This document shows, piece after piece, positions 34,125-59,795 of a DNA stretch of 64,000 bases; position 1 is the stretch's first letter, and every line of letters starts with the position of its first letter. This DNA comes from Escherichia coli. Its GTDB lineage: Bacteria > Pseudomonadota > Gammaproteobacteria > Enterobacterales > Enterobacteriaceae. The stretch lies in NCBI RefSeq assembly GCF_044324785.1, contig NZ_CP172127.1; one strand, 5' to 3'. The notes under the pieces were generated by a model that worked only from the letters and a program-made list of their open reading frames with translations, was not told the origin of the DNA and searched no databases. The position numbers and the translations under genes were made by a program.

Positions 34125-34155
34125 CGTTGCTGTGTCTGATACGAATTGTAAATAT

Positions 34156-34250: not shown

Positions 34251-34297
34251 TGAAACAATGAGCACATTGTCAGAAATCTGTGCGCTAGTAAATCGCC

Positions 34298-36336: not shown

Positions 36337-36348
36337 TATTCTTCTCCG

Positions 36349-37080: not shown

Positions 37081-37159
37081 AGTTAAAAATCCGCGTCGTC
37101 TCCCCACGCGGTTGTACGCGTGGGGTAGGGGTTAACAAAAAGAATCCCGCTAGTGTAGG

Positions 37160-37867: not shown

Positions 37868-37961
37868 CACTTACTCCGTGTTAAAACGAGCCAGCAACGT
37901 AGCGAAAGTTGTTTTGGTATGCAATCAGCCAGATCAGGAAAGTTCCTGATAGTTCAGGTGG

Positions 37962-38459
37962 TTATTTCGCAACCAGCTGTTCGCCGCAGTGAACACAGCG
38001 ATAGACGGCTTCGCCACGAACTACGCGATTATGACGGCGTACGGTAAGCTGATGCTCCTGGCACTTGCAGCGGTAGGGGAAGGTGTTGCGGCGCACGGAT
38101 TGCAGTTCGAACTGATGCGTACGGCGGGCGGGAACGCCCAGCACGCTTTCCATCATCCACTTCCACTCTTTGCCATGTGGCGCTACGCGGCCGAAATGTT
38201 TCCATACCAGCAAATGTGCCAGTTCGTGCGGCACCACTTCTTCAATAAAGGCTTCACTGTTTTCCAACAGCAAAACGGGATTGAGACGAATTTCATAGCT
38301 TTCCAGCCAGGCTGTTCCGGCAGAGGTTCCGCGCTGGGTGTAAGAGAGTTTTGGCTCCGGGTAGTTACGCCCTAGCTTCAGGTTGGCCTGGGCGAGTTTT
38401 TCCCGCAGGCGACGCATAACGGCCTGTTGGATGGCGATAGGGAGACGGGATGTTTTCAT
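37962..38459 (-). CDS. sprT: SprT-like zinc metalloprotease (165 aa)
   Basis: HExxH ([11 protein letters not shown]) and C-terminal zinc ribbon (CxxC...CxxC). Confidence 0.85.
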
Positions 38460-38535
38460 AGCGGCAGAGGATAGAGCGAAGAAAAGATGACTGCAAGAGG
38501 TGGCTTCCTCCATGATGGGAGGAAGCCTGAGGAGA

Positions 38536-39930: not shown

Positions 39931-40012
39931 GATGCCCTCCAATATGGTTATTTTTTATTGTGAATTAAGATAGGTGAGTACGACGTAAAAAGATGTGAAG
40001 CAAATCACATCA

Positions 40013-44436: not shown

Positions 44437-45168
44437 ATGAAAAAATGGAAAGTACGTAGCGCGTTGATAGCATTAGTCGTGCTGCTGACCGGTTGTTCCA
44501 GTAATGCGCAGTATAATAGCAGTACATCGGGCAATGTCGGCACCGCCTGGGGTGGGGATGTGCACTCATCGGTTCAGGGCGTATCTGCTGAGCGAGCCTG
44601 GCGCGATCCGGCAGAGATGATCGTTATTAGTTATTCGACTACTGTTCCTTCGGGCTACGACCGCGTTTATAGCATTCGTATTAACGAACTGGAATATGCT
44701 ATTCGCGATGGTAATTTTAATTCTCTACCTATTACGCGGGTTTATGATTCATCCAATAATGAACCACGCTATATTGTCCATGCCAGAATCGGAATGAATT
44801 ATCAATTATATATCCGTAATTACAGTCGTAACACCAACTACGAGATCGTTGCTACGGTTGATGGCCTGGATGTGCTGAACGGCAAGCAAGGTTCGCTGAA
44901 TAACAATGGCTATATTGTGAATGCCGGAGATTCGTTAGCGATTAAAGGATTCCGCAAAGATAAACATACCGAAGCGGCTTTTCAGTTCGCCAACGTTGCT
45001 GATTCCTACGCAGCCAATTCGGCGCAAGGCGATGTGCGTAATACCGGGGTAATCGGCTTTGCCGCCTTTGAATTACAAGGCCCGGCGCAAAACGCGATGC
45101 CACCGTGCTCTGGACAAGCCTTTCCGGCAGATAACAATGGCTATGCACCGCCACCGTGCCGGAAATAG
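44437..45168 (+). CDS. predicted lipoprotein of unknown function (243 aa) inserted between speA and speB
   Basis: Lipobox (LLTGCSS); AT-rich leader; own terminator downstream; function unknown. Confidence 0.65.
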   Translation: MKKWKVRSALIALVVLLTGCSSNAQYNSSTSGNVGTAWGGDVHSSVQGVSAERAWRDPAEMIVISYSTTVPSGYDRVYSIRINELEYAIRDGNFNSLPITRVYDSSNNEPRYIVHARIGMNYQLYIRNYSRNTNYEIVATVDGLDVLNGKQGSLNNNGYIVNAGDSLAIKGFRKDKHTEAAFQFANVADSYAANSAQGDVRNTGVIGFAAFELQGPAQNAMPPCSGQAFPADNNGYAPPPCRK

Positions 45169-45235
45169 CAACCTCGCTTGATGCCTCGTCCATTTAAGGC
45201 GATAATTAGCGCAAACTTGTGTTTCGCAAATCCAA

Positions 45236-45276
45236 CCCTTCCTCGTCGGGCCTAACGACGCGGAAGGGTTTTTTTA
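45236..45276 (+). terminator. rho-independent terminator after the lipoprotein gene
   Basis: Hairpin cccttcc...ggaaggg followed by a T7 run. Confidence 0.6.
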
Positions 45277-45303
45277 TATCGACTTTGTAATAGGAGTCCA
45301 TCC

Positions 45304-46224
45304 ATGAGCACCTTAGGTCATCAATACGATAACTCACTGGTTTCCAACGCCTTTGGTTTTTTACGCCTGCCGATGAACTTCCAGCCATATGACAGCGATG
45401 CTGACTGGGTGATTACTGGCGTGCCGTTCGATATGGCCACTTCTGGTCGTGCGGGGGGACGCCACGGTCCGGCAGCGATCCGTCAGGTTTCGACGAATCT
45501 GGCCTGGGAACACAATCGCTTCCCGTGGAATTTCGACATGCGTGAGCGCCTGAATGTCGTGGACTGCGGCGATCTGGTATATGCCTTCGGCGATGCCCGT
45601 GAGATGAGCGAGAAGCTGCAGGCGCACGCCGAGAAGCTGCTGGCTGCTGGTAAGCGTATGCTCTCCTTCGGTGGTGACCACTTTGTTACGCTGCCGCTGC
45701 TGCGTGCTCATGCGAAGCATTTCGGCAAAATGGCGCTGGTACACTTTGACGCCCACACCGACACCTATGCGAACGGTTGTGAATTTGACCACGGGACCAT
45801 GTTCTATACCGCGCCGAAAGAAGGTCTGATCGACCCGAATCATTCCGTGCAGATTGGTATTCGTACTGAGTTCGATAAAGACAACGGCTTTACCGTGCTG
45901 GACGCCTGCCAGGTGAACGATCGCAGCGTGGATGACGTTATCGCTCAGGTGAAACAGATTGTAGGTGATATGCCGGTTTACCTGACTTTTGATATCGACT
46001 GTCTGGATCCTGCTTTCGCGCCGGGAACTGGTACGCCGGTGATTGGCGGCCTGACCTCTGATCGCGCCATTAAACTGGTACGCGGCCTGAAAGATCTCAA
46101 CATTGTTGGGATGGACGTAGTGGAAGTGGCTCCGGCATACGATCAGTCGGAAATCACCGCTCTGGCTGCGGCGACGCTGGCGCTGGAGATGCTGTATATT
46201 CAGGCAGCGAAAAAGGGCGAGTAA
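45304..46224 (+). CDS. speB: agmatinase (306 aa)
   Basis: Ureohydrolase translation ([29 protein letters not shown]...). Confidence 0.95.
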
Positions 46225-46260
46225 GCGCCGGATAAGATGCGTTATGCGTCAAATCCGGCG
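46225..46260. repeat. REP-like palindromic element
   Basis: gcgccggataag...tccggcg. Confidence 0.5.
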
Positions 46261-46271
46261 TAATAAAATGC

Positions 46272-47030
46272 TTACTTAACTCCATCCGCGCTCATACGAT
46301 CGCGAATATGCTGGGCGCGTTCGGCGGATGCTGGATGGTCGTCAAACATTGAGCTTTGACGGCCTTCTTCCAGCTTCGCCAGTTTTTCAAAGCTGGTGGC
46401 AAGACCTGCCGGGCTGATGCCGCGTTGGCGCAGAAGATCGTAAGAATAATCATCGGCTTCTGCTTCCTGGCGCTGGGAGAATTGCGAATTGACTAATTTC
46501 TCGCCCAGATCACCGAGTTGTGATTGCGATAAACTGCCGACAATCCCGCCCGCAGAGGCCGCAGCTACTCGTACGGCATTTGTACCAAGTGCCACCTGCA
46601 TCCCTTTCTTCACATGGCCTAACGCTACGTGCCCCATCTCGTGACCGATCACCGCTTCGACTTCGTTATCTGTCATCATATCCATCAGCCCGCTATAGAC
46701 GCGGATACAGCCGTTAGCCATTGCAAAGGCGTTCACATCCTTCGCCATATACACTTTGTAATTCACCGGCTGACCGTTGATATTGTTGCCTAGCGCATTG
46801 GCAATAGTTGTCAGACGTTTAGCGTATTCGCTATTGGCTGGCGCAATCGTCGCCTTGCTGTCCATCTCCTGACATGCCTGATCGCTCAGGGTTTTCACCT
46901 GCGCATCACTCAAACTGTAAGCCTGAAAAGCTTCCGCTCCTGATGAGAGCAGTCCGTTGGAGTCCATATTCTGGCAACCGGTCAGTACCGTTGCCACGCT
47001 CATTGCTACCAATAAGGCGCGAATTTTCAT
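46272..47030 (-). CDS. loiP: M48 metalloprotease LoiP (252 aa)
   Basis: Start at internal ATG (MKIRALLVAMSVATVLTGCQN, lipobox); HEXXH motif (IGHEMGHVAL). Confidence 0.9.
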   Translation of the reverse strand: MKIRALLVAMSVATVLTGCQNMDSNGLLSSGAEAFQAYSLSDAQVKTLSDQACQEMDSKATIAPANSEYAKRLTTIANALGNNINGQPVNYKVYMAKDVNAFAMANGCIRVYSGLMDMMTDNEVEAVIGHEMGHVALGHVKKGMQVALGTNAVRVAAASAGGIVGSLSQSQLGDLGEKLVNSQFSQRQEAEADDYSYDLLRQRGISPAGLATSFEKLAKLEEGRQSSMFDDHPASAERAQHIRDRMSADGVK

Positions 47031-47307
47031 GTTTTCTCTTCCGCACAAGGTCAGGATTATTCTAAAAATGCGCCGTTTGCAGGTGAATCGACGCTTAGTC
47101 TCAGTATAAGGAAAAGCGCAGCGGACGGGCGAGTAGATTGCGCAACATGCGAGCATGATCCAGAGATTTCTGAAGCAGCAAAAGGATGTTCCATGTACAT
47201 GACGCGCGGCTTGCGGTAAATTGTTGGCAAATTTTCCGGCGTAGCCCAAAACGCGCTGTCGTCAAGTCGTTAAGGGCGTGCCCTTCATCATCCGATCTGG
47301 AGTCAAA

Positions 47308-49299
47308 ATGTCCTCACGTAAAGAGCTTGCCAATGCTATTCGTGCGCTGAGCATGGACGCAGTACAGAAAGCCAAATCCGGTCACCCGGGTGCCCCTATG
47401 GGTATGGCTGACATTGCCGAAGTCCTGTGGCGTGATTTCCTGAAACACAACCCGCAGAATCCGTCCTGGGCTGACCGTGACCGCTTCGTGCTGTCCAACG
47501 GCCACGGCTCCATGCTGATCTACAGCCTGCTGCACCTCACCGGTTACGATCTGCCGATGGAAGAACTGAAAAACTTCCGTCAGCTGCACTCTAAAACTCC
47601 GGGTCACCCGGAAGTGGGTTACACCGCTGGTGTGGAAACCACTACTGGTCCGCTGGGTCAGGGTATTGCCAACGCAGTCGGTATGGCGATTGCAGAAAAA
47701 ACGCTGGCGGCGCAGTTTAACCGTCCGGGCCACGACATTGTCGACCACTACACCTACGCCTTCATGGGCGACGGCTGCATGATGGAAGGCATCTCCCACG
47801 AGGTTTGCTCTCTGGCGGGTACGCTGAAGCTGGGTAAACTGATTGCGTTCTACGATGACAACGGTATCTCTATCGATGGTCACGTTGAAGGCTGGTTTAC
47901 TGACGACACCGCAATGCGTTTCGAAGCTTACGGCTGGCACGTTATTCGCGGCATCGACGGTCATGACGCGGCATCCATCAAACGCGCAGTAGAAGAAGCG
48001 CGCGCAGTGACTGACAAACCGTCCCTGCTGATGTGCAAAACCATCATCGGTTTCGGTTCACCGAACAAAGCCGGTACGCACGACTCCCACGGTGCGCCGC
48101 TGGGCGACGCTGAAATCGCCCTGACCCGCGAACAGCTGGGCTGGAAATATGCACCGTTCGAAATCCCGTCTGAAATCTATGCTCAGTGGGATGCGAAAGA
48201 AGCAGGCCAGGCGAAAGAATCCGCATGGAACGAGAAATTCGCAGCTTACGCGAAAGCTTATCCGCAGGAAGCCGCTGAATTTACCCGCCGTATGAAAGGC
48301 GAAATGCCGTCTGACTTCGACGCTAAAGCGAAAGAGTTCATCGCTAAACTGCAGGCTAACCCGGCGAAAATCGCCAGCCGTAAAGCGTCTCAGAATGCGA
48401 TTGAAGCGTTCGGTCCGCTGTTGCCGGAATTCCTCGGCGGCTCTGCTGACCTGGCACCGTCTAACCTGACCCTGTGGTCTGGTTCTAAAGCAATCAACGA
48501 AGATGCTGCGGGTAACTACATCCACTACGGTGTTCGCGAGTTCGGTATGACCGCGATTGCTAACGGTATCTCCCTGCACGGTGGCTTCCTGCCGTACACC
48601 TCCACCTTCCTGATGTTCGTGGAATACGCACGTAACGCCGTACGTATGGCTGCGCTGATGAAACAGCGTCAGGTGATGGTTTACACCCACGACTCCATCG
48701 GTCTGGGCGAAGATGGCCCGACTCACCAGCCGGTAGAGCAGGTTGCTTCTCTGCGCGTGACCCCGAACATGTCTACATGGCGTCCATGTGACCAGGTTGA
48801 ATCTGCAGTGGCATGGAAATACGGTGTTGAGCGTCAGGACGGCCCGACTGCGCTTATCCTCTCCCGTCAGAACCTGGCGCAGCAGGAGCGTACTGAAGAG
48901 CAGCTGGCAAACATCGCGCGCGGTGGTTATGTGCTGAAAGACTGTGCCGGTCAGCCGGAACTGATCTTCATCGCGACCGGTTCGGAAGTTGAACTGGCGG
49001 TTGCCGCCTACGAAAAACTGACTGCCGAAGGCGTGAAGGCGCGCGTGGTTTCCATGCCGTCTACCGACGCATTCGACAAGCAGGATGCGGCTTACCGTGA
49101 ATCCGTACTGCCGAAAGCGGTTACTGCACGCGTTGCGGTGGAAGCTGGCATTGCTGACTACTGGTACAAGTATGTTGGCCTGAACGGTGCTATCGTCGGC
49201 ATGACCACCTTCGGTGAGTCTGCCCCGGCAGAACTGCTGTTTGAAGAGTTCGGCTTCACCGTTGACAACGTTGTTGCGAAAGCAAAAGAACTGCTGTAA
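47308..49299 (+). CDS. tktA: transketolase 1 (663 aa)
   Basis: Start at internal ATG ([41 protein letters not shown]...). Confidence 0.95.
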
Positions 49300-49320
49300 T
49301 CGGTAAGATGCTTTGTGAGA

Positions 49321-49347
49321 AGGGCCGCGAAAGCGGCCCTTTTTTTA
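49321..49347. terminator. bidirectional rho-independent terminator between convergent tktA and the SPFH gene
   Basis: agggccgcgaaagcggccct followed by ttttttt; overlaps the SPFH stop codon. Confidence 0.75.
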
Positions 49348-50253
49348 CTTAGTAGAGATAAACGGAACTGTACTGCCGGGGATCATGGTATCGGGTAGCT
49401 TACCGTCCCAACGCTCAGCAGTGGTGAGGGCAACAAGTCCGGGATTATCCCGCAGAGCTTCACCGCGCAGGCGGATCGCTTCTGCTTCAGCCGCACTTTT
49501 TAAACGAATAGTTTCAGCCTCTGCCGCGCCTCTTACGCGAATAGTCTCAGCTTCTGCTTTGGCTGCCGCCAGTTTACTGTCTGCTTCTGCCTGGGCCTGA
49601 GTTACCGCTATTTGCGCCTGGATTTTCTCTGTTTCCAGATTTTGCTTACGCGTGGCAATGGCGACTTCTGCTTTCATTCGGTCTTCAATCGACTTTTCAT
49701 AAGCGTCAGAAAAATCAATATTTTCAATCTGGACCCCGTCAATTACCACTGGCCCAACAACGGCTTTGCGCATGGCATTTTGCAGATCCTGAACCAGTTT
49801 TGTACGATCCTGTACCGCGCTGATGGCGGTATATTGGCCGAAAACGTTCTCCAGTTGAGTTGGCAACTGACGGACAATCAGACGATCTTTTAATGCTTCA
49901 ATGGTGTTGTAGGTGGTATAAACCGCGCCTGCTTCTGAAGGTTTAATGTGGAAGCTGACTGATACTGTCATTTGTGCCGGTTGCTGGTCGCGGCTGTAGG
50001 CCTGTAATCCCTGATAGACCACAGCCTGATTACGCGTGGAAATTTTCTCCACGCTTTCCATAAACGGGATCTTAAAACCCAGACCCGGCTCGGCAACTTT
50101 TACGATTTTTCCGTAGCGCAGCAAAATGCCGCGTTCACCTTCATTAACGGTGTAATACGAGAGAAATGGCAGCACAACCACGGCAAGCACGCCAATGGCG
50201 ATAGCAAGAGATTTTTGTGGGCGAAATGAGGTTAATGAAACAGGTGCTTTCAT
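49345..50253 (-). CDS. SPFH/band-7 (prohibitin-like) membrane protein with Ala/Glu-rich repeated C-terminus (302 aa)
   Basis: Start at ATG 50253 with AAGGAAG RBS; N-terminal TM segment (LAIAIGVLAVVVLPFLSYY), SPFH core, then three 11-aa repeats (AEAETIRVRGA, AEAETIRLKSA, AEAEAIRLRGE). Confidence 0.75.
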   Translation of the reverse strand: MKAPVSLTSFRPQKSLAIAIGVLAVVVLPFLSYYTVNEGERGILLRYGKIVKVAEPGLGFKIPFMESVEKISTRNQAVVYQGLQAYSRDQQPAQMTVSVSFHIKPSEAGAVYTTYNTIEALKDRLIVRQLPTQLENVFGQYTAISAVQDRTKLVQDLQNAMRKAVVGPVVIDGVQIENIDFSDAYEKSIEDRMKAEVAIATRKQNLETEKIQAQIAVTQAQAEADSKLAAAKAEAETIRVRGAAEAETIRLKSAAEAEAIRLRGEALRDNPGLVALTTAERWDGKLPDTMIPGSTVPFISTK

Positions 50254-50629
50254 ATGAATCTTCCTTGAGTAAAGTGGGGAATATGTCACATGAGGTAAGG
50301 AGAAAATAGCCGACAGGTGAGAATTCAGAATCTATAAAGGGGTATAGCGAAAAAACGTTGCATTAAAAAAGTATGTTTTCGGATATTCAATAAATAAATG
50401 GCGATATGCATCACAAATACAATAACTAACAAAATGTTGATTTTGTGATAAACATAACAAATACAAAGTTGACTTTAAAAATATCAATTTCATATTGTTG
50501 TTATTTAAGGTTTTATTATTTTGGTTTATGGGGTTTTTCTTCTCGCGTACCCAATTGCTTTCATTAAACCGCACGAGTATTTTATTTTTACCGCCGGACG
50601 GTACCCTAAAAATAAAATAAGGATAATTT

Positions 50630-51073
50630 ATGCGGCTTAGTGATTATTTTCCAGAATCATCAATCTCAGTTATACATTCAGCAAAAGATTGGCAGGAAGC
50701 TATCGATTTCTCGATGGCATCATTGCTGGATAAAAACTATATCAGCGAGAATTACATTCAGGCAATTAAAGATTCCACCATTAACAATGGCCCTTATTAT
50801 ATTCTCGCGCCAGGTGTGGCAATGCCTCATGCGCGACCGGAATGTGGGGCGCTTAAAACCGGGATGTCTTTGACGTTACTTAAACAAGGCGTTTATTTTC
50901 CGGGGAATGACGAACCGATTAAATTACTCATCGGGCTTTCTGCTGCCGATGCCGATTCGCACATTGGCGCTATTCAGGCGTTAAGTGAATTACTGTGCGA
51001 AGAAGAAATACTCGAACAACTCTTAACAGCATCATCAGAAAAACAATTAGCGGACATTATCAGCTGCGGATAA
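50630..51073 (+). CDS. cmtB: PTS EIIA component, mannitol/fructose class, cryptic (147 aa)
   Basis: EIIA-2 fold with active-site His (GVAMPHAR); synteny tktA-cmtB-cmtA. Confidence 0.8.
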   Translation: MRLSDYFPESSISVIHSAKDWQEAIDFSMASLLDKNYISENYIQAIKDSTINNGPYYILAPGVAMPHARPECGALKTGMSLTLLKQGVYFPGNDEPIKLLIGLSAADADSHIGAIQALSELLCEEEILEQLLTASSEKQLADIISCG

Positions 51074-51100
51074 TGACTCTCTCCTCTACAGGATAATATT

Positions 51101-52489
51101 ATGGAAAACAAGTCTGCTCGTGCAAAGGTCCAGGCTTTTGGGGGCTTTTTGACGGCAATGGTCATCCCCAATATCGGTGCTTTTATTGCCTGGGGTTTTA
51201 TTACTGCATTATTTATTCCTACTGGTTGGCTGCCGAATGAACATTTCGCCAAAATTGTCGGCCCGATGATTACCTATTTATTGCCCGTGATGATTGGTTC
51301 TACCGGTGGTCATCTGGTCGGCGGTAAACGCGGCGCGGTCATGGGCGGAATTGGTACGATTGGTGTGATCGTCGGCGCAGAGATCCCGATGTTCCTTGGC
51401 TCAATGATTATGGGGCCGCTCGGTGGGCTGGTCATAAAATATGTCGATAAGGCACTGGAAAAACGCATACCTGCTGGTTTTGAGATGGTTATCAATAACT
51501 TCTCATTAGGTATCGCGGGGATGCTCCTTTGTCTGCTGGGTTTTGAAGTGATCGGCCCGGCGGTGTTAATTGCCAATACTTTCGTCAAAGAGTGTATTGA
51601 GGCGCTGGTACATGCGGGTTATCTGCCTCTGCTGTCAGTCATCAATGAACCGGCGAAAGTGCTTTTCCTTAATAATGCGATCGATCAGGGCGTCTATTAT
51701 CCGCTGGGAATGCAACAGGCTTCGGTTAACGGTAAATCCATCTTCTTTATGGTGGCCTCTAACCCAGGTCCGGGCCTGGGGCTGCTGCTGGCGTTTACCT
51801 TGTTTGGTAAAGGGATGAGTAAACGTTCTGCGCCCGGGGCGATGATTATTCACTTCCTCGGTGGGATCCACGAACTGTATTTCCCATATGTGCTGATGAA
51901 GCCGCTGACTATTATTGCCATGATTGCGGGCGGTATGTCTGGCACCTGGATGTTTAACTTACTGGACGGTGGTCTGGTGGCTGGCCCAAGTCCGGGGTCT
52001 ATCTTTGCTTACCTGGCGCTGACGCCGAAAGGTTCGTTCCTGGCGACAATTGCCGGTGTTACGGTAGGTACCCTGGTGTCCTTTGCTATCACTTCGCTGA
52101 TACTGAAGATGGAAAAAACGGTGGAAACGGAGAGCGAAGATGAGTTTGCTCAGTCAGCCAATGCGGTTAAGGCGATGAAACAAGAGGGTGCATTCTCGTT
52201 AAGCCGGGTTAAGCGTATCGCCTTTGTTTGCGATGCGGGGATGGGCTCCAGCGCGATGGGCGCAACCACCTTCCGTAAACGTCTGGAAAAAGCGGGGCTG
52301 GCAATTGAAGTAAAACATTACGCGATAGAAAACGTGCCTGCGGATGCGGATATCGTTGTTACTCATGCCAGTCTGGAAGGGCGCGTGAAACGTGTGACGG
52401 ATAAACCGCTGATACTGATTAATAACTATATTGGCGATCCAAAACTCGACACTTTATTTAATCAATTAACCGCCGAACATAAAAACTGA
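51101..52489 (+). CDS. cmtA: PTS EIICB component, mannitol-like, cryptic (462 aa)
   Basis: Polytopic EIIC followed by EIIB domain (FVCDAGMGSSAMGA). Confidence 0.8.
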   Translation: MENKSARAKVQAFGGFLTAMVIPNIGAFIAWGFITALFIPTGWLPNEHFAKIVGPMITYLLPVMIGSTGGHLVGGKRGAVMGGIGTIGVIVGAEIPMFLGSMIMGPLGGLVIKYVDKALEKRIPAGFEMVINNFSLGIAGMLLCLLGFEVIGPAVLIANTFVKECIEALVHAGYLPLLSVINEPAKVLFLNNAIDQGVYYPLGMQQASVNGKSIFFMVASNPGPGLGLLLAFTLFGKGMSKRSAPGAMIIHFLGGIHELYFPYVLMKPLTIIAMIAGGMSGTWMFNLLDGGLVAGPSPGSIFAYLALTPKGSFLATIAGVTVGTLVSFAITSLILKMEKTVETESEDEFAQSANAVKAMKQEGAFSLSRVKRIAFVCDAGMGSSAMGATTFRKRLEKAGLAIEVKHYAIENVPADADIVVTHASLEGRVKRVTDKPLILINNYIGDPKLDTLFNQLTAEHKN

Positions 52490-52503
52490 TTGCCGAGGTA
52501 AAA

Positions 52504-53781
52504 ATGAAAACCAAAGTTGCTGCTATTTATGGCAAGCGGGATGTCCGTCTGCGCGAATTTGAACTGCCAGAAATTACCGATAATGAACTGTTAGTGAGTG
52601 TGATTTCTGACAGCGTCTGTTTATCGACCTGGAAAGCGGCGTTACTCGGTAGTGAACATAAACGCGTACCCGACGATTTAGAAAATCATCCGGTCATTAC
52701 CGGGCATGAATGTGCCGGGGTTATTGTTGAAGTGGGTAAAAATCTCGCTGGCAAATATAAAAAAGGCCAGCGTTTTGTATTGCAACCGGCGATGGGGTTA
52801 CCAAGCGGATATTCAGCGGGCTACAGCTACGAATATTTTGGCGGTAACGCCACCTATATGATTATTCCCGAAATCGCCATTAATTTGGGCTGCGTATTAC
52901 CGTATCACGGCTCTTATTTTGCTGCGGCGTCGCTGGCAGAGCCTATGTGCTGCATTATTGGCGCTTATCATGCCAATTATCACACCACGCAATATGTTTA
53001 TGAGCATCGCATGGGCGTTAAACCTGGCGGCAATATTGCGCTGCTGGCATGTGCTGGTCCGATGGGCATTGGCGCTATCGATTACGCCATTAACGGCGGC
53101 ATACAACCGTCGCGAGTGGTGGTGGTCGATATCGACGACAAACGCCTGGCGCAGGTAGAGAAGCTGCTGCCGGTGGAACTGGCGGCCAGTAAAGGCATTG
53201 AGCTGGTGTATGTGAATACCAAAGGGATGAGCGATCCGGTCCAGACGCTGCGGGCGCTGACGGATGATGCCGGATTTGATGACGTATTTGTCTATGCAGC
53301 GGTGCCTTCAGTCGTCGAGATGGCTGATGAATTACTGGCGGAAGATGGCTGCCTGAACTTCTTTGCCGGGCCGACGGATAAAAACTTCAAAGTGCCGTTT
53401 AATTTCTACAACGTCCATTACAACAGCACGCATGTCGTCGGTACGTCCGGCGGTTCAACGGACGACATGAAAGAGGCGATTGCGCTTAGCGCCACAGGGC
53501 AGTTGCAGCCGTCGTTTATGGTGACCCATATCGGTGGGCTGGATGCGGTGCCTGATACCGTGCTCAATCTGCCGGATATCCCCGGCGGTAAAAAACTCAT
53601 TTATAACGGCGTCACCATGCCGCTCACTGCCATTGCCGATTTTGCCGAAAAAGGCAAAACCGATCCGCTGTTTAAAGAGCTGGCGCGGCTGGTTGAGGAA
53701 ACGCACGGCATCTGGAATGAGCAGGCCGAGAAATATCTGCTGGCGCAATTTGGCGTTGATATCGGGGAGGCCGCACAATGA
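52504..53781 (+). CDS. yggP: Zn-dependent polyol/alcohol dehydrogenase-like protein YggP (425 aa)
   Basis: MDR-family motifs (GHECAGV); synteny. Confidence 0.8.
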   Translation: MKTKVAAIYGKRDVRLREFELPEITDNELLVSVISDSVCLSTWKAALLGSEHKRVPDDLENHPVITGHECAGVIVEVGKNLAGKYKKGQRFVLQPAMGLPSGYSAGYSYEYFGGNATYMIIPEIAINLGCVLPYHGSYFAAASLAEPMCCIIGAYHANYHTTQYVYEHRMGVKPGGNIALLACAGPMGIGAIDYAINGGIQPSRVVVVDIDDKRLAQVEKLLPVELAASKGIELVYVNTKGMSDPVQTLRALTDDAGFDDVFVYAAVPSVVEMADELLAEDGCLNFFAGPTDKNFKVPFNFYNVHYNSTHVVGTSGGSTDDMKEAIALSATGQLQPSFMVTHIGGLDAVPDTVLNLPDIPGGKKLIYNGVTMPLTAIADFAEKGKTDPLFKELARLVEETHGIWNEQAEKYLLAQFGVDIGEAAQ

Positions 53782-54743
53782 TGTCCCTGGCGTGGCCATT
53801 ATTTCGCGTTACGGAACAGGCAGCGTTGGCTGCCTGGCCGCAAACCGGATGTGGCGACAAAAATAAAATTGATGGCCTGGCGGTCACCGCGATGCGCCAG
53901 GCATTAAACGACGTCGCTTTTCGTGGGCGAGTGGTTATCGGCGAGGGAGAGATTGACCATGCGCCGATGCTGTGGATTGGCGAAGAGGTGGGCAAAGGCG
54001 ATGGGCCAGAAGTCGATATCGCGGTTGACCCGATTGAAGGTACGCGGATGGTGGCGATGGGGCAGAGCAATGCGCTGGCGGTCATGGCTTTCGCCCCTCG
54101 AGATAGCCTGTTACACGCGCCCGATATGTATATGAAAAAACTGGTTGTTAATCGGCTGGCGGCGGGCGCGATTGATCTGTCCATGCCTCTGGCGGACAAC
54201 TTGCGCAACGTGGCGAAAGCGTTAGGCAAACCGCTGGACAAGCTGCGTATGGTTACGCTGGATAAACCGCGCCTGAGTGCCGCAATTGAGGAAGCAACAC
54301 AGCTGGGCGTGAAGGTTTTTGCCCTGCCGGATGGCGATGTCGCCGCCAGCGTGCTGACCTGCTGGCAGGATAATCCTTACGATGTGATGTACACCATCGG
54401 CGGTGCGCCAGAAGGCGTGATTTCTGCCTGTGCCGTTAAAGCATTAGGCGGGGATATGCAGGCCGAGCTGATTGACTTTTGTCAGGCTAAAGGGGATTAC
54501 ACGGAAAATCGGCAGATTGCAGAGCAGGAGCGCAAGCGTTGCAAGGAAATGGGCGTTGACGTTAACCGTGTGTACTCGCTCGATGAACTGGTGAGGGGGA
54601 ACGATATCCTCTTTAGCGCTACGGGCGTGACGGGCGGCGAGCTAGTGAACGGTATCCAACAGACGGCGAATGGGGTGCGGACGCAGACATTACTGATCGG
54701 CGGCGCGGACCAAACGTGTAATATAATAGACTCCCTGCATTGA
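53778..54743 (+). CDS. yggF: class II fructose-1,6-bisphosphatase paralogue (321 aa)
   Basis: GlpX-like translation; 4-bp overlap with yggP. Confidence 0.8.
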   Translation: MMSLAWPLFRVTEQAALAAWPQTGCGDKNKIDGLAVTAMRQALNDVAFRGRVVIGEGEIDHAPMLWIGEEVGKGDGPEVDIAVDPIEGTRMVAMGQSNALAVMAFAPRDSLLHAPDMYMKKLVVNRLAAGAIDLSMPLADNLRNVAKALGKPLDKLRMVTLDKPRLSAAIEEATQLGVKVFALPDGDVAASVLTCWQDNPYDVMYTIGGAPEGVISACAVKALGGDMQAELIDFCQAKGDYTENRQIAEQERKRCKEMGVDVNRVYSLDELVRGNDILFSATGVTGGELVNGIQQTANGVRTQTLLIGGADQTCNIIDSLH

Positions 54744-54764
54744 TGGTGATCTATCGGAAGACCA

Positions 54765-55274
54765 ATGGCGACGCTGACAGAAGATGATGTGCTTGAGCAA
54801 CTGGATGCACAGGACAATTTATTTTCATTTATGAAAACTGCGCATTCTATTTTGCTCCAGGGGATACGCCAGTTTCTGCCGTCGCTGTTTGTCGATAATG
54901 ATGAAGAGATCGTCGAATATGCAGTGAAGCCGTTACTCGCCCAAAGCGGCCCGCTTGACGATATTGATGTTGCACTGCGTTTGATTTACGCGCTGGGGAA
55001 AATGGATAAATGGTTGTACGCCGATATCACGCATTTTTCCCAGTTTTGGCATTACCTGAACGAACAGGATGAAACGCCCGGATTTGCCGATGATATAACC
55101 TGGGATTTTATCAGCAACGTCAATAGCATAATCCGCAATGCGAGTCTCTATGACGCGTTGAAAGCGATGAAATTCGCCGATTTCGCCGTCTGGTCAGAGG
55201 CGCGTTTTAGCGGGATGGTCAAAACGGCGCTGACGCTGGCAGTAACGACCACCTTAAAGGAATTAACGCCGTGA
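54765..55274 (+). CDS. yggD: MtlR-like regulator YggD (169 aa)
   Basis: Size and synteny. Confidence 0.7.
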   Translation: MATLTEDDVLEQLDAQDNLFSFMKTAHSILLQGIRQFLPSLFVDNDEEIVEYAVKPLLAQSGPLDDIDVALRLIYALGKMDKWLYADITHFSQFWHYLNEQDETPGFADDITWDFISNVNSIIRNASLYDALKAMKFADFAVWSEARFSGMVKTALTLAVTTTLKELTP

Positions 55275-55984
55275 AAATCGAACTGACGGTGAATGGACTA
55301 AAGGTACAGGCGCAGTACTCTGATGATGAAATTGAAAATGTACATAAACCGCTACTGCGTATGCTGGCGGCCTTACAGACGGTAAATCCGCAGCGGCGTA
55401 CGGTGGTTTTTCTTTGCGCTCCGCCGGGGACGGGTAAATCTACCCTAACCACCTTCTGGGAATATCTCGCGCAACAAGACCCGGAACTACCCGCTATTCA
55501 GACACTCCCGATGGATGGTTTTCACCATTACAATAGCTGGCTGGATGCGCATCAATTGCGCCCCTTCAAAGGCGCACCAGAGACATTTGACGTTGCGAAA
55601 CTGGCGGAAAATCTGCGCCAGGTCGTGGAAGGGGATTGTACGTGGCCGCAGTACGATCGACAAAAGCATGATCCTGTTGAAGATGCGTTGCACGTTACCG
55701 CACCACTCGTCATCGTCGAAGGAAACTGGCTATTACTGGATGATGAAAAGTGGCAGGAGTTGGCATCTTTCTGCGATTTTTCTATTTTTATTCATGCACC
55801 TGCTCAAATTCTGCGGGAGCGCTTGATTAGTCGTAAAATTGCGGGAGGATTATCGCGGCAAGAAGCCGAAGCTTTTTATGCCCGAACCGATGGTCCCAAT
55901 GTCGAGCGTGTGCTGGTGAATAGTCGTCAGGCCAATCTGATATTAGAGATGACCGAAGAAGGCAGATATCACTTCAAAAGCTGA
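55271..55984 (+). CDS. yggC: P-loop kinase-like protein YggC (237 aa)
   Basis: Walker A (CAPPGTGKST); 4-bp overlap with yggD. Confidence 0.8.
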   Translation: MKIELTVNGLKVQAQYSDDEIENVHKPLLRMLAALQTVNPQRRTVVFLCAPPGTGKSTLTTFWEYLAQQDPELPAIQTLPMDGFHHYNSWLDAHQLRPFKGAPETFDVAKLAENLRQVVEGDCTWPQYDRQKHDPVEDALHVTAPLVIVEGNWLLLDDEKWQELASFCDFSIFIHAPAQILRERLISRKIAGGLSRQEAEAFYARTDGPNVERVLVNSRQANLILEMTEEGRYHFKS

Positions 55985-56268
55985 CAATTTATTCCAGTTA
56001 TTGCAGGGGTATTATCACGCCAGCCTGGAATAAAGCCCCCTACAAAAGGGGATAAAAGTGTGACGTAAGTCAGATAAATGTCTTCTTCGGCTGGACAATC
56101 ATTCCTTTTATTCCACGTTTCGCTTATCCTAGCTGAAGCGTTTCAGTCGATTAAATGTTCGACAATTAACCAATCAGTCGCAGTTTGCGACAGGTAAGGT
56201 TTCCCCGGACGATTTGCTGGATTACTCTGTCTGGCAAATTTGCTCAGGGAAAACCTTGCAGGAGATCT

Positions 56269-57288
56269 ATGACCGTACGCGTAGCGATAAATGGCTTCGG
56301 TCGCATCGGGCGTAATGTGGTTCGTGCTTTGTATGAATCCGGACGCCGGGCGGAAATTACCGTGGTGGCAATCAACGAACTGGCGGATGCTGCGGGCATG
56401 GCGCATTTGTTGAAATATGACACCAGCCATGGCCGTTTTGCATGGGAAGTACGACAGGAACGCGATCAACTTTTTGTTGGTGATGACGCCATCCGCGTAT
56501 TGCATGAACGTTCACTGCAATCGCTCCCCTGGCGTGAACTTGGCGTTGATGTAGTCCTCGACTGCACCGGCGTATATGGCTCCCGCGAGCATGGCGAAGC
56601 GCATATTGCCGCCGGGGCTAAAAAAGTGCTCTTTTCACATCCTGGCAGTAACGATCTCGACGCGACCGTTGTTTATGGCGTCAATCAGGATCAACTTCGT
56701 GCGGAACACCGCATCGTTTCTAACGCTTCCTGTACCACGAATTGCATAATTCCCGTCATCAAATTGTTAGATGATGCGTACGGTATTGAGTCTGGCACTG
56801 TGACCACAATTCACTCCGCCATGCATGATCAACAGGTTATTGATGCATACCATCCTGACCTGCGTCGCACTCGGGCAGCCAGTCAGTCGATCATTCCGGT
56901 CGATACTAAACTGGCCGCCGGTATCACACGATTTTTTCCGCAATTTAACGATCGCTTTGAAGCGATTGCGGTACGTGTGCCAACCATAAATGTGACGGCA
57001 ATCGATTTAAGCGTGACGGTGAAGAAACCTGTAAAAGCCAATGAAGTCAACCTGTTGCTGCAAAAAGCAGCACAAGGTGCATTTCATGGTATAGTTGACT
57101 ATACGGAATTGCCGTTGGTCTCTGTAGATTTTAACCACGATCCGCACAGTGCCATTGTCGATGGCACCCAAACCCGGGTCAGTGGCGCACACCTGATCAA
57201 AACGTTGGTCTGGTGCGATAACGAATGGGGCTTTGCTAACCGAATGCTCGACACGACGTTAGCTATGGCTACTGTTGCTTTCAGGTAA
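56269..57288 (+). CDS. epd: erythrose-4-phosphate dehydrogenase (339 aa)
   Basis: Start at internal ATG ([21 protein letters not shown]...); GAPDH family. Confidence 0.95.
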
Positions 57289-57337
57289 GACGCAAGCAGC
57301 GTCTGCAAAACTTTTAGAATCAACGAGAGGATTCACC

Positions 57338-58501
57338 ATGTCTGTAATTAAGATGACCGATCTGGATCTTGCTGGGAAACGTGTATTTATCCGTGCGGAT
57401 CTGAACGTACCAGTAAAAGACGGGAAAGTAACCAGCGACGCGCGTATCCGTGCTTCTCTGCCGACCATCGAACTGGCCCTGAAACAAGGCGCAAAAGTGA
57501 TGGTAACTTCCCACCTGGGTCGTCCTACCGAAGGCGAGTACAACGAAGAATTCTCTCTGCTGCCGGTTGTTAACTACCTGAAAGACAAACTGTCTAACCC
57601 GGTTCGTTTGGTTAAAGATTACCTCGACGGCGTTGACGTTGCTGAAGGTGAACTGGTTGTTCTGGAAAACGTTCGCTTCAACAAAGGCGAGAAGAAAGAC
57701 GACGAAACTCTGTCCAAAAAATACGCTGCACTGTGTGACGTGTTCGTAATGGACGCATTCGGTACTGCTCACCGCGCGCAGGCTTCTACTCACGGTATCG
57801 GTAAATTTGCTGATGTTGCGTGCGCAGGCCCGCTGCTGGCAGCTGAACTGGACGCGCTGGGTAAAGCACTGAAAGAACCTGCTCGCCCGATGGTGGCTAT
57901 CGTTGGTGGTTCTAAAGTATCTACCAAACTGACCGTTCTGGACTCCCTGTCTAAAATCGCTGACCAGCTGATTGTTGGTGGTGGTATTGCTAACACCTTT
58001 ATCGCGGCACAAGGCCACGATGTGGGTAAATCCCTGTACGAAGCTGATCTGGTTGACGAAGCAAAACGTCTGCTGACCACCTGCAACATCCCGGTTCCGT
58101 CTGATGTTCGTGTAGCAACTGAGTTCTCTGAAACTGCACCGGCTACCCTGAAATCTGTTAACGATGTGAAAGCTGACGAGCAGATCCTGGATATCGGTGA
58201 TGCTTCCGCTCAGGAACTGGCTGAAATCCTGAAGAATGCGAAAACCATTCTGTGGAACGGTCCGGTTGGCGTGTTCGAATTCCCGAACTTCCGCAAAGGT
58301 ACTGAAATCGTGGCTAACGCTATCGCAGACAGCGAAGCGTTCTCCATCGCTGGCGGCGGCGACACTCTGGCAGCAATCGACCTGTTCGGCATTGCTGACA
58401 AAATCTCCTACATCTCCACTGGCGGCGGCGCATTCCTCGAATTCGTGGAAGGTAAAGTACTGCCTGCAGTAGCGATGCTCGAAGAGCGCGCTAAGAAGTA
58501 A
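57338..58501 (+). CDS. pgk: phosphoglycerate kinase (387 aa)
   Basis: Start at internal ATG ([25 protein letters not shown]...). Confidence 0.95.
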
Positions 58502-58507
58502 AAAATC

Positions 58508-58535
58508 ACAGGGCAGGGAAACCTGCCCTTGTTTC
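58508..58535 (+). terminator. terminator/attenuator hairpin after pgk
   Basis: agggcagg gaaa cctgccct followed by T-rich tail. Confidence 0.55.
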
Positions 58536-58715
58536 AGCGCGCTTTTAGAGCACGCAATTTTTCATACTCTAAATAATTCGAGTTGCAGGAAGGCGACAAG
58601 AGAGTGAATCCCCAGGAGCTTACATAAGTAAGTGACTGGGGTGAGCGAACGCAGACGCAGCACATGCAACTTGAAGTATGACGAGTATAAGGCCCGACGA
58701 TACAGGACAAGAGAC

Positions 58716-59795
58716 ATGTCTAAGATTTTTGATTTCGTAAAACCTGGCGTAATCACTGGTGATGACGTACAGAAAGTTTTCCAGGTAGCAAAAGAAAACA
58801 ACTTCGCACTGCCAGCAGTAAACTGCGTCGGTACTGACTCCATCAACGCCGTGCTGGAAACCGCTGCTAAAGTTAAAGCGCCGGTTATCGTTCAGTTCTC
58901 CAACGGTGGTGCTTCCTTTATCGCTGGTAAAGGCGTGAAATCTGACGTTCCGCAGGGTGCTGCTATCCTGGGCGCGATCTCTGGTGCGCATCACGTTCAC
59001 CAGATGGCTGAACATTATGGTGTTCCGGTTATCCTGCACACCGACCACTGCGCGAAGAAACTGCTGCCGTGGATCGACGGTCTGCTGGACGCGGGTGAAA
59101 AACACTTCGCAGCTACCGGCAAGCCGCTGTTCTCTTCTCACATGATCGACCTGTCAGAAGAATCTCTGCAAGAGAACATCGAAATCTGCTCTAAATACCT
59201 GGAGCGCATGTCCAAAATCGGCATGACTCTGGAAATCGAACTGGGTTGCACCGGTGGTGAAGAAGACGGCGTAGACAACAGCCACATGGACGCTTCTGCA
59301 CTGTACACCCAGCCGGAAGACGTTGATTACGCATACACCGAGCTGAGCAAAATCAGCCCGCGTTTCACCATCGCTGCGTCCTTCGGTAACGTACACGGTG
59401 TTTACAAGCCGGGTAACGTGGTTCTGACTCCGACCATCCTGCGTGATTCTCAGGAATATGTTTCTAAGAAACACAACCTGCCGCACAACAGCCTGAACTT
59501 CGTATTCCACGGTGGTTCCGGTTCTACTGCTCAGGAAATCAAAGACTCCGTAAGCTACGGCGTAGTGAAAATGAACATCGATACCGATACCCAATGGGCA
59601 ACCTGGGAAGGCGTTCTGAACTACTACAAAGAAAACGAAGCTTACTTGCAAGGCCAGCTGGGCAACCCGAAAGGCGAAGATCAGCCGAACAAGAAATACT
59701 ACGATCCGCGCGTATGGCTGCGTGCCGGTCAGACTTCGATGATCGCTCGTCTGGAAAAAGCATTCCAGGAACTGAACGCGATCGACGTTCTGTAA
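58716..59795 (+). CDS. fbaA: class II fructose-bisphosphate aldolase (359 aa)
   Basis: Start at internal ATG (MSKIFDFVKPGVITGDDVQKVFQVAKENNFALPAVNCVG...). Confidence 0.95.
   Translation: MSKIFDFVKPGVITGDDVQKVFQVAKENNFALPAVNCVGTDSINAVLETAAKVKAPVIVQFSNGGASFIAGKGVKSDVPQGAAILGAISGAHHVHQMAEHYGVPVILHTDHCAKKLLPWIDGLLDAGEKHFAATGKPLFSSHMIDLSEESLQENIEICSKYLERMSKIGMTLEIELGCTGGEEDGVDNSHMDASALYTQPEDVDYAYTELSKISPRFTIAASFGNVHGVYKPGNVVLTPTILRDSQEYVSKKHNLPHNSLNFVFHGGSGSTAQEIKDSVSYGVVKMNIDTDTQWATWEGVLNYYKENEAYLQGQLGNPKGEDQPNKKYYDPRVWLRAGQTSMIARLEKAFQELNAIDVL

Follow-up and report, generated by a model that had tools for sequence, protein, structure and literature searches.

Among the closest described relatives of the cmtBA-yggPFDC gene block is the mannitol operon mtlADR of Escherichia coli. 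Both encode permeases of a common family (CmtA is 52% identical to the IICB part of MtlA, with an identical IIB active-site loop) and, toward the end of the operon, a protein of the MtlR family (YggD shares 36% identity with MtlR over 105 residues and keeps the CRP-contact Arg and Leu), and CRP sites paired at 44 bp lie upstream of both. Unlike mtlADR, the block encodes its enzyme IIA as a separate protein (only 28% identical), has a SorE-type Zn-MDR dehydrogenase rather than MtlD, adds a P-loop kinase and a class II fructose-1,6-bisphosphatase (FBPase), and shows one CRP pair versus the five sites at mtl.

The dehydrogenase is most like that of the sor operon of Klebsiella pneumoniae and Lactobacillus. 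YggP and SorE are 42–45% identical over their full length, including a C-terminal extension, and have in common a Cys/His/Glu/Glu set (inferred Zn ligands) and the GTSGG and GGKKL motifs. They differ in a loop at YggP residues 95–112, which we take, judging from sequence, to be a substrate-binding loop. Otherwise, the sor operon relies on a four-subunit PTS of the mannose family, has SorC as its regulator and encodes a glucitol-6-phosphate dehydrogenase of the SDR type; it contains neither a kinase nor a phosphatase.

The gat operon combines a galactitol PTS, the Zn-dehydrogenase GatD and a tagatose-bisphosphate aldolase. It resembles the block in the order polyol PTS, Zn-MDR acting on a polyol phosphate, then ketose bisphosphate; however, GatD-type enzymes share only about 25% identity with YggP, the gat PTS is from a different family, and the block has no dedicated aldolase. 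In fruBKA, as in the route proposed below, a 1-phosphate PTS product is taken to a 1,6-bisphosphate before aldolase, and by the same logic an FBPase is required for hexose-6-phosphate. FruK is a PfkB-family kinase, whereas YggC is a P-loop kinase with a proposed activity, and the fru route lacks a dehydrogenase step. Finally, GlpX of the glp regulon is 58% identical to YggF, with all metal and catalytic motifs kept. In contrast to GlpX, YggF is part of a PTS operon; about 10% of E. coli do without it, and other lineages fill its slot with a non-homologous PHP enzyme or leave it empty. The cmtBA-yggPFDC locus itself is already known and has long been on record without an explained function.

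Layout and products of the six genes

The window analyzed here is a 64,000-nucleotide stretch of E. coli DNA (contig NZ_CP172127.1), in which the following features were identified:

50630..51073, + strand: cmtB, PTS enzyme IIA of the mannitol/fructose class (147 aa; PTS_EIIA_2; phosphorylation His67 present)
51101..52489, + strand: cmtA, PTS enzyme IICB (462 aa; PTS_EIIC and PTS_IIB domains)
52504..53781, + strand: yggP, Zn-dependent dehydrogenase (425 aa; ADH_N and ADH_zinc_N)
53024..53040, + strand: intragenic sigma-54 site inside yggP, CTGGCGGCAATATTGCG (1 mismatch; GG and GC kept)
53778..54743, + strand: yggF, class II (GlpX-type) FBPase (321 aa; FBPase_glpX, 406 bits)
54765..55274, + strand: yggD (RefSeq name fumE), MtlR-family protein (169 aa; MtlR profile, 176.7 bits)
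55271..55984, + strand: yggC, P-loop kinase of the PRK/uridine kinase/PanK superfamily (237 aa; GTG start)

The original prediction described a tight co-directional block with 4-bp overlaps, and this is what the ORF listing contains: six plus-strand ORFs occupy 98.8% of positions 50630–55984 (5293 of 5355 nt), none with an internal stop, and the predicted bounds coincide exactly with the start codon of cmtB and the stop codon of yggC. Both overlaps are 4 nt long, ATGA at yggP/yggF (53778–53781) and GTGA at yggD/yggC (55271–55274); the remaining gaps of 27, 14 and 21 nt each contain a Shine-Dalgarno-like motif. The predicted gene identities and family calls likewise hold, with profile matches for all six products.

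Together, CmtB and CmtA make up a mannitol-class PTS permease split over two proteins, and both of its phosphorylation sites are intact. CmtA scores above the cut-off of the NCBIfam mtlA subfamily, and its IIB loop, C377-DAGMGSSAM, is identical to MtlA 384–393. YggP is a member of the SorE subfamily of Zn-dehydrogenases: its full-length identity to sorE products of genuine sor operons is 45%, 45%, 44% and 42%, and the next nearest MDR is only 28% identical. Residues C39, H68, E69 and E146 are invariant and are presumably the catalytic Zn ligands, by analogy with sorbitol-dehydrogenase-type MDRs; a GPMG Rossmann motif is present, and D209 predicts use of NAD. YggC is an intact P-loop kinase, with a Walker A motif (APPGTGKST) at residue 50 and a match of 507 bits (cut-off 402) to the nucleoside/nucleotide-kinase family NF006742; an independent prediction likewise makes it a “sugar/polyol kinase.” YggF, a bisphosphatase of the GlpX type, keeps the DPIEGT, EGE and DGD motifs and passes TIGR00330 at 585 bits. 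The literature, citing Brown 2009, credits it with FBPase activity, reportedly less efficient than that of Fbp. The sigma-54 site within yggP has been reported in K-12 as IS35 (PMC4591121).

Conservation within and beyond E. coli

K-12 MG1655 (NC_000913.3) contains the same six genes at lengths identical to those in the window, and its yggP (b4465) is a single intact 425-aa CDS. The proposed strain difference, a full-length yggP here and a split one in K-12, therefore does not exist. An older, split annotation of the gene would account for the unused numbers b2931 and b2932, which fall between yggF (b2930) and cmtA (b2933); such a split is annotation history and no biological difference between strains. 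The block is core to E. coli, being found in 5425 of 5426 complete genomes. That it was described as retained intact is correct but unremarkable, because 5388 of the 5426 carry at least 80% of it. Purifying selection acts on all six genes (dN/dS 0.009–0.19). Two real polymorphisms had been overlooked: yggF alone carries an internal deletion in 572 of 5426 genomes (~10%), and the tktA-cmtB spacer varies, holding an SPFH gene in this window and in one third of strains. In one strain, cmtB through yggD has been lost to IS1.

A comparison across 80 species offers clues to the course of the pathway and to the way in which the operon is switched on. IIA, IICB, YggP and YggC are found together in every locus with enough flanking sequence (80 species loci), the lone exception being one decayed Vibrio copy. 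This linkage holds in unrelated contexts: between menF and menD in Hafnia, beside mtlADR in Rahnella, in the Vibrionaceae, and in the Clostridia, where yggC is placed between the IIA and IICB genes and a PRD-type regulator takes the place of YggD. The phosphatase slot is variable: 46 loci have a GlpX-type enzyme, 17 loci of the Vibrionaceae encode a PHP phosphoesterase resembling YcdX, and 6 have none. A reversible PPi-PFK is encoded upstream in two Clostridial loci. Gene families and cross-species linkage together bear out the original characterization of a coherent but unassigned sugar-alcohol route.

Upstream region and probable regulation by YggD

The region 5′ of cmtB contains the following features:

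50400..50415, + strand: CRP-like site 1, GGCGATATGCATCACA (2 mismatches to TGTGA-N6-TCACA)
50444..50459, + strand: CRP-like site 2, TGTGATAAACATAACA (1 mismatch)
50469..50496, + strand: putative cmtB promoter from a promoter scan (-35 TTGACT, 50469–50474; 16-nt spacer; -10 CATATT, 50491–50496)
50552..50629, + strand: 78-nt leader common with K-12, conserved across Enterobacteriaceae

New here is the arrangement of two CRP-like sites, their centers 44 bp apart, with the -35 hexamer 9 nt past site 2, which recurs across the Enterobacterales. A pair at 44/45 bp is found in 33 of 53 Enterobacterales upstream regions, whereas 300 dinucleotide shuffles averaged 0.01, and 11 further loci have a partner site with 3 mismatches (33–44 of 53 in all). 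In 43 of 46 pair-bearing sequences, a hexamer beginning with TTG lies exactly 9 nt 3′ of site 2. The scan also recovered the published 44/73/44 spacing at mtlA. The 44-bp pair was not found in the Vibrionaceae loci, although YggD is present there. Site 2 would lie near -52 from a guessed start, to our knowledge not a classical CRP activating position. The CRP sites in the window rest on consensus matches with 1–2 mismatches. The leader holds a perfect 13-nt inverted repeat (50578–50590/50607–50619) and the Shine-Dalgarno sequence AAGGA, and matches no Rfam family.

MtlR requires two CRP sites 43–46 bp apart and is sequestered by the dephosphorylated IIB domain. YggD is an MtlR-fold protein whose R147 and L158 occupy the alignment positions of R167 and L178, the residues through which MtlR contacts CRP; equivalents of both are kept in every YggD examined. 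Because the layout of the CRP pair matches the geometry at which MtlR was recently shown to be recruited, YggD is probably a CRP-anchored repressor. The paired sites and conserved contact residues favor the earlier call of an MtlR-like regulator over the RefSeq name fumarase E, a curated name that stems from an in vitro metabolomics screen. ChIP-exo of YggD gave zero peaks; it was performed in glucose medium, where cAMP-CRP is low, with a C-terminal tag beside the predicted CRP interface. SELEX with CRP identified the cmtB promoter as a target, and in a crp mutant this promoter, active in a reporter assay, loses activity. In the proposed mechanism, transcription would start from the weak promoter 9 nt 3′ of the CRP pair; YggD, which lacks a DNA-binding domain, would dock on both CRP dimers as MtlR does and repress; and transport, by leaving the IIB domain of CmtA dephosphorylated, would release it. 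It is also conceivable that MtlR itself, rather than YggD, uses the CRP pair; this, the Vibrionaceae loci lacking the pair, the consensus-only CRP sites, the -52 position and the absence of ChIP-exo peaks count against the mechanism.

A candidate route and its alternatives

Taking pathway and regulation together, we tentatively read cmtBA-yggPFDC as a single operon for the catabolism of a sugar alcohol resembling mannitol, a reading that falls a little short of an even chance. The PTS would deliver a polyol-1-phosphate, and YggP, using NAD+, would oxidize the carbon adjoining the phosphate to give a ketose-1-phosphate, the SorE reaction reversed. YggC would then phosphorylate the far end, yielding a ketose-1,6(7)-bisphosphate cleavable by class II aldolase. 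In an accessory step, YggF could take the 1-phosphate off part of the pool, supplying ketose-6(7)-phosphate for biosynthesis and the pentose-phosphate pathway. We infer which positions YggP oxidizes and YggC phosphorylates from the families of the two enzymes and from the logic of the operon. One point against the scheme is that pairing a kinase with a bisphosphatase could create a futile cycle, should both target the same carbon.

The standing annotation is that of a redundant, “cryptic” second mannitol system, in which CmtAB imports mannitol, an MtlD-like YggP converts mannitol-1-phosphate to fructose-6-phosphate, and YggF, YggD (as fumarase E) and YggC are housekeeping passengers. The 52% identity of CmtA to MtlA, its passing of the NCBIfam mannitol-permease cut-offs and the adjacency of the Rahnella block to mtlADR are consistent with this. 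We nevertheless consider it unlikely: YggP belongs to the SorE subfamily and not the MtlD family, and in every lineage, the Clostridia among them, YggC occurs with the PTS and YggP, which is unlike a passenger. Block-bearing genomes (E. coli, Rahnella) also have mtlADR, and such strong purifying selection would be unexpected for a pure duplicate. Moreover, Salmonella Weltevreden with the island equals serovars without it in mannitol growth (an unpublished test mentioned in a paper).

Two further schemes each deserve little credence. The Fru/Mtl PTS family includes some ketose permeases whose products are 1-phosphates, and YggP is ~45% identical to genuine L-sorbose-1-phosphate reductases; a PTS-derived ketose-1-phosphate could be reduced by YggP in the SorE direction to a hexitol-phosphate, with MtlD or SrlD encoded elsewhere finishing the route. 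However, CmtA is plainly of the mannitol type within the family, no second dehydrogenase corresponding to SorD is encoded in the block, and the universally linked YggC and the bisphosphatase would be left without a role. Alternatively, a heptitol such as volemitol could pass through sedoheptulose-1-phosphate to sedoheptulose-1,7-bisphosphate, with YggF acting as a sedoheptulose bisphosphatase that feeds transketolase/transaldolase, or with aldolase producing DHAP and erythrose-4-phosphate. Transketolase does adjoin the block beyond E. coli (four Vibrionaceae loci have tal-tkt upstream, V. mediterranei has tkt 19 nt downstream, and in Rahnella laticis the block is followed by fba-tkt), and some GlpX-type enzymes are dual FBPase/SBPases, judging from how PDB entries 3roj and 5a5l are named. 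Yet tkt-epd-pgk-fba is presumably an old gammaproteobacterial synteny block, and the tkt neighborhood may be a mere insertion hot spot; tkt is not near most loci (Aliivibrio, the V. harveyi clade, Hafnia, Serratia, Yersinia, Clostridia), and a literature search found no assay of YggF on sedoheptulose bisphosphate.

Compared with the operon reading that we favor, a silent relic without function in present E. coli is scarcely credible: the historical label “cryptic,” the weak promoter hexamers, the yggF deletion in ~10% of strains and the single IS1 loss of cmtB-yggD could suggest one, but it is contradicted by the dN/dS of 0.009–0.19 on all six genes and the 5388 of 5426 genomes with at least 80% of the block, by the CRP-dependent promoter active in the reporter assay, by an operator architecture kept across genera, and by cmtB expression that is 2–3-fold higher in bovine gut contents.

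The cmtB-yggC block in E. coli

The original prediction described six tightly packed, co-directional genes with two 4-nt overlaps. The ORF listing bears this out, including the extent given for the block, which is filled exactly by six plus-strand ORFs:

50630-51073, plus strand, cmtB, encoding the PTS IIA protein CmtB
51101-52489, plus strand, cmtA, encoding the IICB protein CmtA
52504-53781, plus strand, yggP, encoding a predicted dehydrogenase
53778-54743, plus strand, yggF, encoding a GlpX-type phosphatase
54765-55274, plus strand, yggD, encoding an MtlR-type protein named fumarase E (fumE) in RefSeq
55271-55984, plus strand, yggC, encoding a predicted kinase, with a GTG start

The overlaps are ATGA at 53778-53781 (yggP/yggF) and GTGA at 55271-55274 (yggD/yggC). 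The other junctions are gaps of 27, 14 and 21 nt, all of which contain a Shine-Dalgarno-like motif, and the coding density of the block is 98.8%. The family names proposed for the six products were all confirmed with Pfam and NCBIfam. The proposed strain difference, an intact yggP here against a split gene in K-12, is void. In K-12 MG1655 (NC_000913.3) yggP is a single CDS of 425 aa (b4465), the very finding that the prediction had named as removing the difference, and a strain-specific intact yggP is ruled out by this identical 425-aa ORF. An early split annotation, later merged, does fit the vacant numbers b2931 and b2932, which fall exactly at yggP. K-12 carries all six genes at the same lengths, with 94.7–98.0% nucleotide identity and 1–12 amino-acid changes per gene. 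The block is thus a real feature, rightly delimited and named, but it is a known E. coli locus that is annotated universally.

The block is among the larger unexplained carbohydrate operons of the best-studied bacterium, and it is carried by essentially every E. coli and by many gut, plant-associated and marine bacteria. Literature searches by gene name returned mostly noise and turned up no paper that gives it a substrate. What the present analysis adds is a pathway logic and a regulatory mechanism, both of them specific and testable. We propose tentatively, as possible rather than probable, that YggD is a second CRP-anchored, MtlR-type anti-activator and not a fumarase in the cell, and that the enzymes form a PTS route not described before, with a ketose-1-phosphate made by a SorE-type dehydrogenase and a ketose bisphosphate made from it by YggC.

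Within the species the block belongs to the core genome. It was matched in 5425 of 5426 complete E. coli genomes, with 5388 covering at least 80% of it in one place; one strain has lost cmtB through yggD beside an IS1 element. Purifying selection acts on each of the six genes, with dN/dS of 0.009–0.06 for cmtA and yggP and 0.04–0.19 for the other four in comparisons with K-12, other Escherichia species and other genera. Over 20000-40000 the window matches E. coli NRZ14408 and several other complete genomes at 100% identity, and from about 45000 to 59500 it differs from NRZ14408 by scattered or clustered SNPs, followed by an indel near 59600. Because these SNPs stand against otherwise identical genomes, the region of about 45–59.5 kb, from tktA through pgk, is read as a recombination tract. 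The tract accounts for the ceiling of 98.8% identity over the block among complete genomes (best matches 98.6–98.8%). These modest values had raised the suspicion of an Escherichia other than E. coli, which the full identity over 20000-40000 rejects; the window is ordinary E. coli.

Among other Escherichia (loci L006, L008, L010 and L012 of the cross-species comparison, each against the window), dS differs several-fold between neighbouring block genes of the same genome pair; for Escherichia sp. E1V33 it is 0.08 in cmtB and 0.72 in yggC. This pattern points to mosaic recombination, with yggC falling into distinct allele classes.

Gene content across species and a candidate polyol phosphate pathway

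A scan of species-representative genomes, with neighbours mapped by tblastn, gave 80 loci. The order IIA-IICB-YggP-YggF-YggD-YggC is found in 46 Enterobacterales loci, and in 17 Vibrionaceae loci YggF is missing from the series (IIA-IICB-YggP-YggD-YggC) and a YcdX-like PHP phosphoesterase comes after YggC. Eight Clostridial loci have the order IIA-YggC-IICB-YggP; five of the eight carry a PRD-type regulator instead of YggD, and two have a reversible PPi-dependent phosphofructokinase upstream. This distribution of gene content implies that the conserved unit consists of the PTS, YggP and YggC, and YggD occupies a gammaproteobacterial regulator slot. In one Vibrionaceae locus, that of Vibrio maritimus (L077), the block appears to be decaying: a full IICB match was not found and YggC is split in two.

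Both permease proteins are of the mannitol class. CmtA is a Fru/Mtl-family, mannitol-type EIICB (PF02378, 99 bits; PF02302, 49.9 bits) that passes the mannitol-permease models narrowly (TIGR00851, 480 bits against a cut-off of 468.4; NF011663, 592.5 against 589), and its phosphorylatable IIB residue Cys377 (VCDAGMGSS) aligns with MtlA Cys384. CmtB is a PTS EIIA type 2 protein (PF00359, 104.9 bits; NF007358, 323 bits, cut-off 192) whose active-site His67 aligns with MtlA His554.

YggP is assigned by alignment to the SorE subfamily of Zn-dependent MDR dehydrogenases. In tblastn searches of plasmid records it is 44–45% identical to sorE of Klebsiella, Citrobacter and Serratia, over 97–98% of its length, and 42% identical to a Lactiplantibacillus SorE homologue over the same proportion; the next MDRs after SorE are 28% identical. 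The two neighbourhoods inspected, those of the Klebsiella and Lactiplantibacillus matches, are canonical sor operons. Aligned, YggP and SorE have in common Cys/His/Glu/Glu, the Rossmann motif, GTSGG, GGKKL and a C-terminal extension. Residues C39, H68, E69, E146, G185-P-M-G188 and D209 of YggP are invariant (alignments A1 and A3); we take the first four to be the catalytic-Zn positions of sorbitol-dehydrogenase-type MDRs, and D209 predicts the use of NAD. YggP orthologues are unusually conserved, with 65% identity between E. coli and the Clostridia. SorE interconverts L-sorbose-1-phosphate and D-glucitol-6-phosphate, and therefore acts on the carbon adjoining the phosphorylated one. Unlike the sor operon, the context of YggP is a mannitol-type PTS without SorD or SorC; the locus does not qualify as a sorbose operon, and YggP is consequently regarded as a paralogous relative of SorE rather than SorE itself.

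YggC is classed from its sequence as a P-loop kinase of the PRK / uridine kinase / PanK superfamily. It matches the nucleoside/nucleotide-kinase family NF006742 at 507 bits (cut-off 402), has a Walker A motif APPGTGKST at residue 50 and invariant DGFH and EGNW motifs, and finds its nearest solved chain in 3C8U (labelled “fructokinase,” E = 1e-21); PF00485 was recorded for the Vibrio and Clostridial orthologues. An independent comparative study has predicted YggC to be a “sugar/polyol kinase” (PMC3223725).

These assignments could be joined in a four-step pathway, which we infer without specifying the polyol. The mannitol-class PTS would deliver a polyol-1-phosphate, which the SorE-type enzyme YggP, run oxidatively, would convert to a ketose-1-phosphate. 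The always-linked kinase YggC would then form a ketose-1,6(7)-bisphosphate, cleavable by class II aldolase, from which a bisphosphatase would supply the 6(7)-phosphate for biosynthesis. The scheme would account for the universal presence of the kinase and for a phosphatase that is useful yet dispensable, its step being accessory. It would likewise account for both the FBPase activity reported for YggF and the kinase prediction for YggC. One of two questions sharpened by the comparison is whether YggP and YggC jointly turn a polyol phosphate into a ketose bisphosphate; the other is whether YggD represses cmtB from a seat on two CRP dimers.

YggF itself is a member of the class II, GlpX-type FBPase family (PF03320, 406 bits; TIGR00330, 585 bits, cut-off 259). 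It keeps with GlpX the residues D32, E56/E58, D84-P-I-E87-G-T89, D185/D187 and E212, and the DPIEGT, EGE and DGD motifs are in place. Its FBPase activity was reported by Brown et al. 2009, as cited in PMC8719807 and PMC3105977. A deletion of about 650 bp inside yggF has left a pseudogene in 572 of the 5426 complete E. coli genomes, among them that of the type strain ATCC 11775 (and, for example, locus L088), and the five other genes of the block are intact there. The phosphatase is also absent from the block in five Rahnella species and in Budvicia. Its slot is accessory and is taken by enzymes that are not homologous to one another, and in two of the eight Clostridial loci its role is possibly covered by the reversible PPi-dependent phosphofructokinase.

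The position of the block between tktA and epd in E. coli was discounted as a functional clue, since Hafnia, Rahnella, Serratia, Yersinia and others hold the block elsewhere: it lies between menF and menD in Hafnia and adjoins mtlADR in Rahnella, and in Salmonella it has been described as a serovar-specific island. Transketolase adjoins the block in non-E. coli contexts as well (loci L059, L070, L076, L081, L075 and L047). It is accompanied by transaldolase in four Vibrionaceae loci and by class II aldolase in Rahnella laticis, and in V. mediterranei it follows the PHP gene after 19 nt; most loci lack it. Because transketolase recurs beside the block in several contexts, there is a hint that the product enters metabolism at the FBP/SBP-pentose-phosphate node, which keeps a heptitol route open.

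YggD and a proposed cmtB operator

YggD has the MtlR fold. It matches PF05068 at 176.7 bits, has a near-identical solved chain in 3C8G and matches the MtlR structures 6KCR and 3BRJ. In Pfam and NCBIfam it matched MtlR-type families only, and its sequence is unrelated to fumarases; the name “fumarase E” goes back to a screen done in vitro, which PMC8464067 cites. According to a July 2026 paper, MtlR is without a DNA-binding domain and, to repress mtl, docks on a pair of CRP dimers, bound at sites 43–46 bp apart with an optimum of 44–45 bp, for which it requires R167 and L178. Such spacing was reported there for the mtl operator only, among 331 CRP-regulated transcription units; the paper makes no mention of YggD or cmt. 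YggD residues R147 and L158 align without gaps with these two MtlR residues and are conserved in all six YggD sequences aligned (window, Citrobacter, Yersinia, Rahnella, Hafnia and Aliivibrio).

Upstream of cmtB, consensus matches identify two putative CRP sites, at 50400-50415 (site 1) and 50444-50459 (site 2), with centres 44 bp apart. Exactly nine nucleotides after site 2 comes TTGACT, which 16 nt separate from CATATT. The K-12 spacer has diverged too far to be aligned by megablast; even so, its layout and the distances from the ATG are the same. SELEX reportedly identified the cmtB promoter as a target of CRP, and its activity falls in a crp mutant.

The same geometry recurs at related loci. 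A pair of CRP-like sites, each with at most two mismatches and 43–46 bp apart, is present in 33 of 53 Enterobacterales upstream regions; in 300 shuffles that preserved dinucleotides the mean was 0.01 and the maximum 1. The scan took in 72 regions altogether, with 26 cases of a 44-bp spacing and 8 of a 45-bp spacing, and a further 11 loci have a partner site with three mismatches at 44 or 45 bp. A TTG-initial hexamer begins 9 nt past site 2 in 43 of the 46 sequences that have the pair. The sequences of the sites vary widely between genera, and the geometry is retained; the loci compared share a phylogenetic history. At mtlA the scan recovered the published 44/73/44 spacing; in the upstream regions of the Vibrionaceae loci it did not find the pair.

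Since the operator geometry, R147/L158 and the IIB loop of CmtA (CDAGMGSSAM, identical to the MtlA loop on which MtlR docks) all match the MtlR system, we propose that YggD would be a CRP-anchored repressor of its own operon. A rival reading is that MtlR itself might use the CRP pair at cmtB. A ChIP-exo experiment with YggD was negative; it used glucose medium and a tag at the C terminus, conditions that would hide a protein which depends on CRP and docks through its C-terminal end. If YggD does act as proposed, the cmtB operator would join that of mtl as a second natural case of two CRP sites spaced by 44 bp, the mtl and cmt systems could engage in cross-talk by way of their identical IIB loop, and the “fumarase E” label, which has spread to thousands of genomes, would be corrected.

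A generic scan of the block for promoters and terminators gave counts not above those of shuffles, and became useful only after the CRP pair had pointed to the TTGACT hexamer. A weak promoter-like TTGCTT-17-TATTTT in the last 78 nt before cmtB was initially considered the main promoter, and was dropped once the architecture of two CRP sites, 9 nt and TTGAC emerged. The motif could serve as a second promoter, or it could belong to the conserved leader in which it lies.

Leader, spacer and intragenic features

Four further features lie in or beside the block:

50552-50629, plus strand, leader before cmtB, conserved across Enterobacteriaceae
49345-50289, minus strand, SPFH/Band-7 (“prohibitin family”) gene of 314 aa, between tktA and cmtB
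49284-49351, GC hairpin flanked by T/A runs, between tktA and the SPFH gene convergent with it
53024-53040, plus strand, intragenic sigma-54 site in yggP

The leader contains a perfect 13-nt, AT-only inverted repeat (50578-50590 and 50607-50619) that encloses a short GC dyad and stops just short of the Shine-Dalgarno sequence. An Rfam search with 50552-50629 gave no match, and the arms of the repeat are conserved in sequence and so offer no covariation by which an RNA structure could be tested. Across genera the right arm is shortened in some and the left arm is kept, and the central dyad shifts position.

The rest of the tktA-cmtB spacer (49300-50551) is dimorphic. The form with the SPFH gene is found in 1816 of 5426 complete E. 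coli genomes, and K-12 has a 313-bp spacer without this gene; in blastn the alignment between the two is limited to the last 78 bp before cmtB. The hairpin looks like a bidirectional terminator. Its Rfam match to AaHKsRNA20 is sub-threshold (30.5 bits, gathering score 43) and probably due to chance.

Binding of sigma-54 inside yggP has been mapped in K-12 (site IS35; PMC4591121). The corresponding site in the window differs from it by one change, from …TTGCA to …TTGCG, which leaves the GG and GC dinucleotides in place.

At the other end of the block, many strains and genera (for example loci L088 and L013) carry a four-gene ECF/ABC-type transporter cassette in the gap between yggC and epd (55985-56268). 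It is absent from the window and from K-12; a paper on E. coli W called it a cobalt transporter.
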